This document shows, in pieces, positions 26,387 to 29,185 of a stretch of 63,243 nucleotides of DNA. The DNA is from an uncultured Thiothrix sp. (GTDB lineage: Bacteria; Pseudomonadota; Gammaproteobacteria; Poriferisulfidales; GCA-002705445). Under the pieces are notes generated by a model. It did no database searches. It saw nothing but the letters and a program-made list of their open reading frames with translations, and had not been told where the DNA came from. Both the position numbers and the translations under genes were made by a program. Location of the stretch: contig CACEJE010000006.1 in NCBI GenBank assembly GCA_902559815.1, positions 1 through 63,243 on the forward strand. The letters run 5' to 3'. Position 1 is the first letter of the stretch; the number at the start of each line of letters is the position of its first letter.

Positions 26387-29185
26387 TTATGATTGTTCCT
26401 GCATACTTACGTTCACTAGTTTTGAAACTCCCTTTTCACCCATTGTAACACCAATTAATTGCTCAACATATTCCATTGTAATTTTTTTATGGGTAATAAT
26501 TATAAATTGAATTTTTTCACTCATTTCAGTAAATAAATTGCAAAATCTTTCTATATTTGCATCATCTAATGGAGCATCAACTTCATCCAGCATACAAAAC
26601 GGTGATGGATTAAGTGAAAAAAGAGCAAATACTAGCGATAAGGCTGTAAGCGCTTTCTCTCCACCTGATAAAAGATTTATTGATGTGAGTTTTTTCCCCG
26701 GAGGGCTTGCATATACCTCTACACCAGTTTTTAATAAGTCATTTTCAGTCATTTTTAGATATGCTTTACCGCCGTTAAATAATTTTGGAAAAATTTCTTG
26801 CAGTTTATTATCAACTTTATCAAAAGTTTCTTTAAATCTCTCTTTGGTATCTTTATCTATTTTTTTAATTGCCTCTTCAAGAGATTCAAGAGCATCAAGC
26901 AAGTCATCTTTTTGCATGACTAAGTATGATTTTCTTTCTTCATATTCTTTAAATTGATCTATAGCCGCCATGTTTATAGCACCCATTCTTTCTATAGCAT
27001 TAGTTAATTCATTCTCTCTTTTTTTCCATTTAGATAAATCATAATTTATATCTGCATCTAATATTGATATATTATCAATTCCCATTTCTGCTAATTGATC
27101 TTTAATGCCTTTTACTTGCCCAATAATGCCTTGTATGTCTTTCTCGTCATCCGAAATTTCATTTCTTAAATTTTCTACTAATAAGGATTTCTCAGATTTT
27201 TCACTTTCGAGTAATGAGATATTTTCAGATAAATCTGATATCTTTTCTCGAATCGATTTTAATTCGGTGTCTTTGATATTCTGTATTTTTAACTTTTCAT
27301 TTAGCTGATTTTCTAGATCATCCAATTTATTATCGGGTGCACTAGAATTATCTTGCAGAATCTTTATATTACCAGACAATGACTGCAATTCATTATTGTT
27401 AATACTTATATTATTTTCCAAATTAACAACCTGAATCTTTTTCGTTTCAATGCCAAGCTCATTTTCTCTAAAAGATATATTATTTGCATCCAAATTACTA
27501 AGAATAATATTATGATTTTTTTCTAAATCTTCAATAGTTTCACTTGTTTGCTTGCAAATATTTTCAAAATTTTTGATTTCGCCGTCTGAGATATTTATCA
27601 AATTTTTTATTTCCGCTACATTTGAAATTAATTCATTCAATCTTTTTGTTTCAGAGTTAATTTTGTTATCAATGTCTTTTTTAATTTTCTCATTTTTTTT
27701 TGCTAAATCATATTCATTTGACTGTATATTTTTAACAATATTTTGAATACTTTCTAATATCTCTTGAATTTTTTTAGCTATGTCACGAATGTCACTATGA
27801 TCCTTTTTTTCAAAATGATTTTTAAGTTTATTTATTTCATCTTTATAGTTTTTTATTTTTAAATCTAGTTCATAAGATTCAATTTTTTTTAATTCTATAT
27901 AGATCTGTTCTGATGTTTTCGAGTATTCTATTATGTCTTCTTTTATTCTTACAATATTATTATCATAGTCATTAAGTTTTTCTTCTTTTAATTTTATATC
28001 TTGATTGTATTCATATAAATTTTTTAGATTTTTTTCTAAATCATTTTTTTTAGTAATTATTTCGTTTTTTACATTGTTCGAATCTGATTCTAGTTTTAAT
28101 TTTTTATCCTCATATTGCTGCTGCTTAGTATGTAGCTCTTTAATTTCTTTTTGAAATAGTACTAATTGATCATTATCTGAATTTAATCTATCTTGAAGTT
28201 TTTCAATTGACTTTAAGGCATCCTCATACTGCTGCTTATTTCTTTCTGCGCCAGCTTTTTCGTATTCAATAGCTTGCTCAGTTCTACCTACTTCGCTTAA
28301 AGCATCATAGTATTCTTTTTGTATATTGTTCATATTTTCGCTTTGCTCTTGGTATGCTTCTTTAATTTTATTAATTTCCAAATTTGTATTACTAATTTCA
28401 AGTTGCCTTTTTTCAAGCTTTGTCTTTTTTGTTTCAATTTTTTTATTATTATTCTCTATTTTCTCTTGAAAATCTCTAATACTTATAGCTAAAATTTCTG
28501 CTTTAATTGATTTTTTTTCTTCAGATAATTTTTTATACTTGTCTGCTTGTATTGCTTGTCTCTCTAAGATTTTAAGTTGCTTTGTTACTTCACTTACAAC
28601 ATCATTTAATCTATCAAGATTTTCTTTTGTGTGTTTTATTTTATTTTCTGTTTCTCTTTTTCTTTCTCTATATTTTGAAATTCCTGCTACTTCCTCTAAA
28701 TATACTCTAAATTCTTCTGGTTTTGATTCTATCAATTTTGAAGCGGTGCCTTGGTTTATAATTGCATAGCTTTTTGGACCAAGCCCTGTTCCCATAAAGA
28801 TATCTAGTATATCTCTTCTCCTGCAATGAGAGTTATTTAAAAAATATTTTGAAGCACCATCTCTTGTTACTTCTCTCTTAACAGAAATTTCATCATATTG
28901 AGCATACTGGCCACCTATTCTATTTTCAGTATTCGAAAACAATAACTCTACGTTTGCATAATCATTTGGCTTTCTTGTGTCTGTTCCGTTAAAAATAACA
29001 TCGTCAATATTATCACCTCTTATATGTTTTGAAGTCTCACCTAAGACCCATTTAACTGCATCTATTATGTTAGATTTTCCACATCCATTGGGGCCAATTA
29101 TTGCGGTTCTTTTTGTGGATAATGTGAGCTCAGTTTTATCTACGAAGGATTTAAACCCTGAAATTTTAATATTTGTTAGCCTCAA
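26387..29185 (-). CDS. smc: Chromosome segregation ATPase Smc, short (932 aa), no recognisable hinge
   Basis: GFKSF, Walker [24 protein letters not shown], signature LSGGEK, Walker B/D-loop [15 protein letters not shown] start. Confidence 0.92.

Follow-up and report, generated by a model that had tools for sequence, protein, structure and literature searches.

A hinge-less Smc with a predicted helical-hairpin apex in a family of small gammaproteobacterial genomes from the ocean

The hinge is treated as universal in Smc, cohesin, and condensin, where it joins the dimer constitutively, binds DNA, and has been proposed as a DNA gate; RecN dimerises through its coiled-coil apex. An engineered departure from the hinge is the Bacillus subtilis Smc(Zh) chimera, in which, according to Bürmann et al. 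(PMC5344682), the hinge was swapped for the unrelated zinc hook of Pyrococcus furiosus Rad50, with normal growth on rich medium. A full-text search of the literature for natural hinge-less SMC forms found one description (PMC12153180, Environ Microbiome 2025), that of a "hinge-less" SMC cluster that is abundant in the ocean, is annotated as Actinomycetes, carries no CxxC motif, has no co-occurring regular SMC, branches near actinobacterial SMC, and has its mechanism left open. The present analysis concerns the smc gene of a 63,243-nucleotide (nt) stretch of a contig of an uncultured Thiothrix sp. (CACEJE010000006.1; the window, i.e., the whole stretch of DNA that was analysed). Its product of 932 amino acids (aa) is best explained as a bacterial Smc orthologue, the sole condensin-type ATPase found in its own genome, and the hinge is, with high confidence, truly absent from this functional gene. 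The original prediction, made from the letters of the DNA, had described such a protein without being able to tell whether similar forms were already known; PMC12153180 answers that question, and the kind is not unprecedented. The family studied here is a new variant, probably of independent origin, of the recently described hinge-less SMC, and its value lies in a defined, conserved candidate module at the predicted helical apex and in a sister lineage with a hinge-bearing Smc of nearly equal length.

The protein resembles canonical Smc-ScpAB of the B. subtilis type in its TIGR02168 score, its synteny, its colinearity with a hinge-bearing sister Smc, its head motifs, its long antiparallel arms, and the presence of ScpA, ScpB, and ParB in the genome; it differs in the lack of the alpha/beta hinge, in a predicted helical-hairpin apex, and in length, as 144 of the best 150 of 1.84 billion representatives measure 1135-1188 aa. 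The score against TIGR02168, the NCBIfam SMC_prok_B equivalog model, is 831 bits against a cut-off of 567.35 and is split into two stretches, the better of which aligns residues 2-459 with model positions 1-459 of 1181. Pfam SMC_N covers residues 3-921 with 171.9 bits, and the Walker A, signature, Walker B, and H-loop motifs can all be read in the sequence, in agreement with the intact N- and C-terminal ABC heads that had been claimed for it. RecN and Rad50/SbcC likewise combine ABC heads with an antiparallel coiled coil and a non-hinge apex, but the protein scores 51.9 bits with the RecN model TIGR00634 (cut-off 407.85), a separate RecN-sized frame is present in the genome, and the Rad50 models reach 35-72 bits against cut-offs of 700-1087. 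With Smc(Zh), as described in PMC5344682, it shares Smc heads and arms joined by a non-hinge apex; unlike the chimera it carries no zinc hook, and its module is natural and only putatively dimerising.

The anatomy of the gene is listed below. Conservation in the heads refers to a 21-sequence alignment (A1) of orthologues that are 48-92% identical, in which the ATPase motifs are invariant columns and the heads nearly so; entropy is the mean column entropy of 14 family sequences thinned to <90% identity; helices, kinks, and turns are those of two AlphaFold2 (AF2) models, one of the full length (alignment A1) and one of the central segment (residues 390-545, 14 sequences).

26387..29185 (-): smc, 932 codons plus stop, TTG start, with TIGR02168 and Pfam SMC_N matches
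28682..29185 (-): N-terminal half of the ABC ATPase head, residues 1-168, Walker A at 31-39, nearly invariant in A1; the AF2 arm helix starts at 169
27884..28681 (-): predicted N-terminal arm helix, residues 169-434 (AF2 helices 169-307 and 319-434), interrupted at 307-318 (nt 28232-28267) by a conserved break
27845..27916 (-): conserved island 1, residues 424-447, entropy 0.79 bits, helix kink at 435 in both models
27740..27844 (-): variable tip of the predicted hairpin, residues 448-482, entropy 1.76 bits, with all indels of the region and with a turn at 458-465 (nt 27791-27814)
27650..27739 (-): conserved island 2, residues 483-512, entropy 0.77 bits, with the paired kink at 487-488 in both models
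26891..27721 (-): predicted C-terminal arm helix, residues 489-765, broken at 610-620 (nt 27326-27358, where Pro617 is conserved) and at 701-716
26390..26890 (-): C-terminal half of the ATPase head, residues 766-932, with LSGGEKAL at 839-846, Walker B FCMLDEVD at 863-870, and the H-loop ITH at 897-899, invariant in A1

The frame is uninterrupted in the list of open reading frames (ORFs) and its translation, and the window holds no N letters. At the level of sequence models, the hinge family SMC_hinge (PF06470) is not among the 12 Pfam families listed at E<=10 for the protein, and a profile of its centre found no hinge among the PDB sequences, its matches being only designed helical bundles and coiled coils (E>=0.0018), which are probably compositional. 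When the centre of the family was aligned by hhalign with the hinge region of the sister families, the probability was 0.1%. At the level of composition, Gly312 is followed by the next glycine at 535 (222 Gly-free residues) and Pro156 by the next proline at 617 (460 Pro-free residues), so the earlier hand counts of no Gly between 313 and 534 and no Pro between 157 and 616 were correct; the five cysteines (35, 121, 544, 864, and 882) form no CxxC, in line with the claimed absence of a Rad50-type hook. The proposed look for a separate hinge-encoding gene, by a six-frame search with PF06470, found none in the own genome (a 0.91-Mb assembly of 34 contigs, 80% complete) or in the 16 other genomes of the family. 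The original claim of a missing hinge thus stands on the Pfam result, on the Gly-free centre, on the hhalign comparison, and on models that are all-helical, and the protein is an Smc orthologue by descent that falls outside the five-domain architectural definition of Smc, as it has no hinge. The accompanying picture needs amending in one respect, since what replaces the hinge is not a mere continuation of bare long arms: about 85-120 helical residues fill its place.

A cryptic, highly diverged hinge fold could nevertheless persist at the centre, beyond the reach of sequence models. PF06470 at E<=0.01 misses the hinge of two full-length Smc proteins of the same class (G068, 1192 aa, and G128, 1157 aa), so that a Pfam miss alone is no proof of loss and the model under-detects diverged hinges in the class; moreover, the centre of the 932-aa protein stands opposite the hinge of the sister Smc in a pairwise alignment. 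This reading is already disfavoured, and we consider it extremely improbable, in view of the long stretches free of Gly and Pro, the all-helical prediction at a predicted local distance difference test (pLDDT) of 75-97, the hhalign probability, and the small number of residues on offer. A recognisable vestige of the hinge was dropped as a candidate on the same hhalign result, and a by-eye resemblance (NE..K..KD) in the pairwise alignment with a sister Smc had no statistical support.

An artefact of assembly, i.e., the deletion or collapse of a full-length smc, would produce the same appearance. When the protein was searched against the genomes of 40 relatives, 14 of the 16 others in its family, which span three genera, were found to encode a colinear orthologue matching residues 1-930 at 49-89% identity; in the suggested comparison of lengths, the 12 family genes that were extracted, the own gene included, encode 928-937 aa. 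Residues 380-560, used as the query of a word-indexed search, retrieved 101 proteins; 94 measure 931-937 aa, seven are shorter (583-919 aa), and PF06470 is listed for none of the 101. Near-identical DNA occurs in the seawater metagenome runs of several studies, and, as had been advised, the centre of the gene was inspected for an assembly deletion: nt 26933-28493 are crossed by independent contigs of run X10, and nt 27153-28729 by those of run X3, in both cases with 0 gaps and no indels listed. The runs with bridging contigs come from different studies, and runs X3 and X4, which gave identical rows, were counted as one data set. The relatives and the independent contigs exclude an assembly collapse; no observation favoured it, its probability is negligible, and it is refuted for practical purposes. 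Four contig "joints" were disregarded, their sides being 20-24 letters long at 90% likeness, a kind of match that often comes from other organisms. In an RNA-library run (X15), four short contigs of 160-238 nt lie on smc with 0-3 differences, which does not show transcription. The homologues are named "AAA family ATPase" at NCBI and "chromosome segregation protein" at JGI, and with only the former name a hinge-less Smc is easily overlooked.

The point at which the hinge was lost can be placed by comparison with the related families of the same order. When PF06470 was searched in six frames, it matched none of the 17 genomes of the own family (f1, own genome included), all 12 of family f2, all 11 of family f3, and the one genome of family f4. 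This last genome (G019, 0.9 Mb) encodes an Smc of 943 aa with a Pfam hinge at residues 414-506 (34.8-39 bits), and f4 is sister to f1 in a quick maximum-likelihood tree, with a Shimodaira-Hasegawa-like approximate likelihood ratio test (SH-aLRT) value of 91. The two proteins are near-equal in length, 41% identical, and colinear, the hinge of the one standing opposite residues ~417-507 of the other, with gaps, in the pairwise alignment that also gives the helical replacement its extent; the difference between them is that the hinge is kept in f4 and gone in f1. The Smc proteins of the other families in the order measure 1015-1167 aa. The arms of the f4 protein, estimated from the position of its hinge at ~236-242 residues, match the mode of natural prokaryotic Smc arm lengths, which PMC5344682 places at 238 aa. 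In the simplest history, shortening of the arms came first, in an ancestor that f1 and f4 share, and within f1 the hinge then gave way in place to a helical stretch about as long or slightly shorter. The start codon of smc (29183-29185) is TTG in all 12 extracted family genes, and the f4 gene starts with ATG.

The structure predictions describe what occupies the place of the hinge. The full-length AF2 model has a mean pLDDT of 68.7, with blocks within 330-600 mostly at 70-94 and the heads poorly modelled; its helices run over residues 169-307, 319-434, 436-457, 464-487, 489-609, 621-700, 717-734, and 741-802, and no strand lies between residues 145 and 806. The central-segment model (mean pLDDT 88.7, predicted template modelling score (pTM) 0.60) has helices at 391-434, 436-460, 466-486, and 489-544. 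The suggested AlphaFold monomer thus gives an all-helical hairpin with no globular hinge in the middle. The full-length model puts the turn loop at 458-463 and the central one puts it at 461-465, which bears out the fold-back that the earlier reader had placed at a polar turn of residues 455-465 (nt 27823-27791), and the centre is predicted to be a continuous antiparallel helical hairpin turning at 458-465. In these models, the paired kinks (435 and 487-488) and the paired breaks (307-318 and 610-620) fit one fold-back register in which the residue numbers sum to ~922, so that helices 169-434 and 489-~765, with their matching breaks, form by prediction the long antiparallel coiled-coil arm of an Smc. 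The arm-helix break is itself strongly conserved, EYEKDGAERNK (307-318) standing opposite SPDxKL (610-620) with Pro617 nearly invariant, and the entropy of residues 296-322 is 0.57 bits; it may be an elbow- or joint-like discontinuity.

No specific fold relative for the apex emerged from Foldseek, VIA-align, or the PDB-sequence profile. Specifically, Foldseek gave no PDB match to the central model at E<=0.001, the best being an Smc5/6 arm at E 0.045, and in the wide VIA-align search the best Z was 12.7, among generic helical hairpins, ~13 being a common level for long helices. The central model superposes on the Rad50 coiled coil 6zff with Z 12.1 and a root-mean-square deviation of 2.1 over 109 residues, again a level common for helical hairpins, and its structural neighbours (Smc5/6 arm, colicin, Rad50 coiled coil) are generic antiparallel hairpins.

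Conservation singles out a part of this hairpin. The heads have an entropy of 0.25 bits, the head-proximal arm (170-295 and 700-765) of 0.66-0.74 bits, and the distal arms (330-423 and 513-608) of 1.77-1.81 bits (330-423 at 1.77); both islands flanking the tip are therefore about as conserved as the head-proximal arm, with tip and distal arms free to vary. The eleven most conserved 24-residue windows of residues 320-700 sit at 480-490 or 424. According to the models, the islands face one another across the kinks in the fold-back register, and they would make up a conserved two-helix zone of ~40 residues just below the tip, in which the N-helix (~410-447) lies against the C-helix (~475-512), centred on the islands. 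The candidate module of residues 424-512 is thus a defined and conserved piece of 89 residues, and no opposite-strand ORF of >=80 aa in the ORF list overlies the islands.

A mechanism that would join these observations is as follows. In the ancestor of the family, the globular alpha/beta hinge would have been replaced in place by an all-helical segment, and the two arm helices would run on into the kinked antiparallel hairpin that turns at 458-465. The conserved sub-apical zone could then take over as the interface at which two protomers dimerise constitutively, their hairpins packing, for example, into a four-helix bundle, and the apex dimer would close the Smc-ScpAB ring as the hinge does elsewhere, the protein still working with ScpA, ScpB, and ParB. 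The conserved islands beside the turn favour such apex dimerisation over a ring-less way of working, and the zinc-hook chimera (PMC5344682) offers a precedent that a non-hinge apex can serve. As far as conservation within the family can tell, we give dimerisation through the helical apex a probability of roughly 55%.

The main rival holds that there is no constitutive apex dimer and that two Smc molecules have contact only through heads engaged by ATP and through the bridge that ScpAB makes, giving an open clamp or rod rather than a hinge-closed ring, the islands serving arm-arm zipping or contact with DNA or a partner. The central model, a plain extended hairpin like many monomeric ones, suits this rival, as does the poorly conserved centre of a second hinge-less clade described below, and the dimer interface is something that we infer from conservation alone. 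Against it stand the islands, whose conservation equals that of the head-proximal arm next to a varying tip, the retention of the kleisin and ScpB, and two statements in PMC5344682, namely that the B. subtilis hinge is replaceable by another dimerisation domain and that a B. subtilis strain without the hinge region is called smc null. On balance this open clamp seems a doubtful but substantial alternative. A related and broader proposition, that there is no apex dimerisation at all and that a ring-less Smc-ScpAB evolved at least two times in streamlined marine bacteria and still organises and segregates their chromosomes, is unlikely; if true, hinge-based topological closure and hinge-DNA contacts would both be dispensable for the core SMC motor. 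In a third arrangement, a domain-swapped dimer, the N-helix of one chain would pair with the C-helix of a second and form a two-headed rod. Its residue pairings would be identical to those of the intramolecular hairpin, so that conservation cannot separate the two, but both AF2 models fold back with the loop exactly at the variable, indel-bearing site, and the paired kinks at 435 and 487-488 fit a hairpin, which makes the swap very improbable. A two-copy complex prediction of residues 370-570 (A1), run without controls, gave a score of 0.04 and a mark of 0.42 and speaks neither for nor against binding.

Several points weigh against dimerisation through a helical apex, beyond the nature of the evidence for the interface. 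A reading of the alignment shows in the conserved zone no marked excess of hydrophobic or basic residues over ordinary coiled coil, and the zone could instead bind another partner or DNA. The alignments behind the two AF2 models are shallow (21 and 14 sequences), and the heads of the full-length one are poorly modelled. In the second hinge-less clade (732-826 aa), no centre of comparable conservation is shared between families, and the hhalign probability between the two centres is 9%; a centre so poorly conserved and dissimilar suggests that a specific apex module may not be required. Moreover, two family genomes gave no Smc, G005 (93% complete) having no match and G014 (84% complete) only a weak match to another ATPase, and in the genus member G003 smc carries a single in-frame TAA at codon 426, at the start of island 1, where the other members have E, Q, or K; this stop could be a sequencing error or a real pseudogene.

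The last two observations are also what speaks for a decaying smc, or for one moved to a function other than chromosome organisation, in these ~1-Mb genomes. Such decay is already disfavoured and quite improbable, given that the heads and motifs are nearly invariant among orthologues that are 48-92% identical, that the smc-zipA-ligA position is kept, that the TIGR02168 score lies above its cut-off, that the genomes without an Smc match are incomplete metagenome-assembled genomes, and that ScpAB is kept. The ATPase is intact, and purifying constraint acts on the gene. The genes for ScpA and ScpB had been proposed as a check on the prediction, and they are in place: the two lie side by side on contig C18 of the own genome, and 16 of the 17 family genomes encode both. 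The own genome also encodes ParB. A scan for SMC_N frames saw no second condensin in that genome, which is 80% complete; the other sizeable frames are RecF-sized (356 aa) and RecN-sized (551 aa, contig C10), and the remaining weak SMC_N rows are taken to be ABC transporter ATPases.

An Smc apex of helical-hairpin type, whether dimerising or not, has to be seen against the occurrence of short Smc proteins elsewhere. Among the best 150 representatives mentioned above, two are of this type (one of 933 aa and a 648-aa fragment), and four more are short (943, 990, 1003, and 1071 aa) and have PF06470 matches, that of the 1071-aa protein below the cut-off. In an even sample of the class, PF06470 matched at E<=0.01 in 248 of 300 genomes, a tally that includes four genomes flagged as unpublished (G077, G169, G321, and G331), all hinge-positive, on which the other claims do not depend. 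Ten of the 52 hinge-negative genomes were tested for TIGR02168 at E<=1e-10: six have no match, in one the gene is cut by a contig end, and one (G078, 0.9 Mb) encodes an Smc of 733 aa without a hinge match (L034:1498-3699). The other two of the ten are G068 and G128, whose full-length Smc proteins match TIGR02168 from end to end.

The G078 protein belongs to a second gammaproteobacterial clade of mini-Smc proteins, with an Smc of 732-826 aa in genomes of 0.7-1.8 Mb, which in the quick tree lies outside the group of f1 and f4 on a long branch. All but one of the 16 relatives of G078 that were searched keep the short form, whose frames measure 733-759 aa in its own genus; a second family has frames of 735-745 aa, and two others have 815-831 aa. 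Another three members (810, 732, and 826 aa; L051, L052, and L053) have no PF06470 match at E<=1, so that all four tested are negative. Like the family studied here, this clade has intact Smc heads, no PF06470, and small genomes; unlike it, the arms are much shorter, and the centre is unrelated and poorly conserved between families. A module common to both was rejected, since hhalign aligned only 25 columns outside the islands. By length alone, ESM Atlas offers further leads, namely SMC_N clusters (736-919 aa) assigned to Pseudomonadota, Spirochaetota, and Actinomycetota.

The published clade, in turn, shares with the present family SMC heads with a coiled coil, the lack of a hinge and of CxxC, the lack of a regular SMC beside it, and abundance in ocean metagenomes; it is annotated as Actinomycetes, whereas the family here is gammaproteobacterial. 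Three loci related to the centre (in a six-sequence central alignment) are titled Gammaproteobacteria, and this gammaproteobacterial context (zipA and the titles of the relatives) argues for an origin separate from the published clade. Taken with the second mini-Smc clade and the published actinobacterial-type clade, the family suggests that hinge loss recurs in streamlined ocean genomes. It thereby provides a natural case in which the hinge fold is gone and heads, arms, ScpA, ScpB, and ParB stay, which is a test of the need for that fold; the hinge-bearing sister of near-equal Smc length makes a clean comparative pair, and the ~90-residue candidate module is open to direct dimerisation tests and, like the Rad50 zinc hook, to swaps into model organisms.

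The genes downstream of smc have the order that the original prediction had called normal:

25675..26367 (-): zipA, directly downstream of smc, Pfam ZipA_C 73 bits
23637..25685 (-): ligA, NAD-dependent DNA ligase, Pfam DNA_ligase_aden 309 bits, plus OB, HhH, and BRCT domains

Upstream of smc, Pfam identifies the genes for QueF and Der. Antisense ORFs of 89-139 aa lie inside smc and ligA, at 26538-26957 (+), 24421-24774 (+), and 25027-25296 (+), and are probably chance frames of AT-rich DNA. Lastly, a complete rRNA operon (16S, two tRNAs, 23S, and 5S) lies at 2564-7615 (-) of the window and accounts for a block of 44-47% GC in a genome that is otherwise at ~27% GC.

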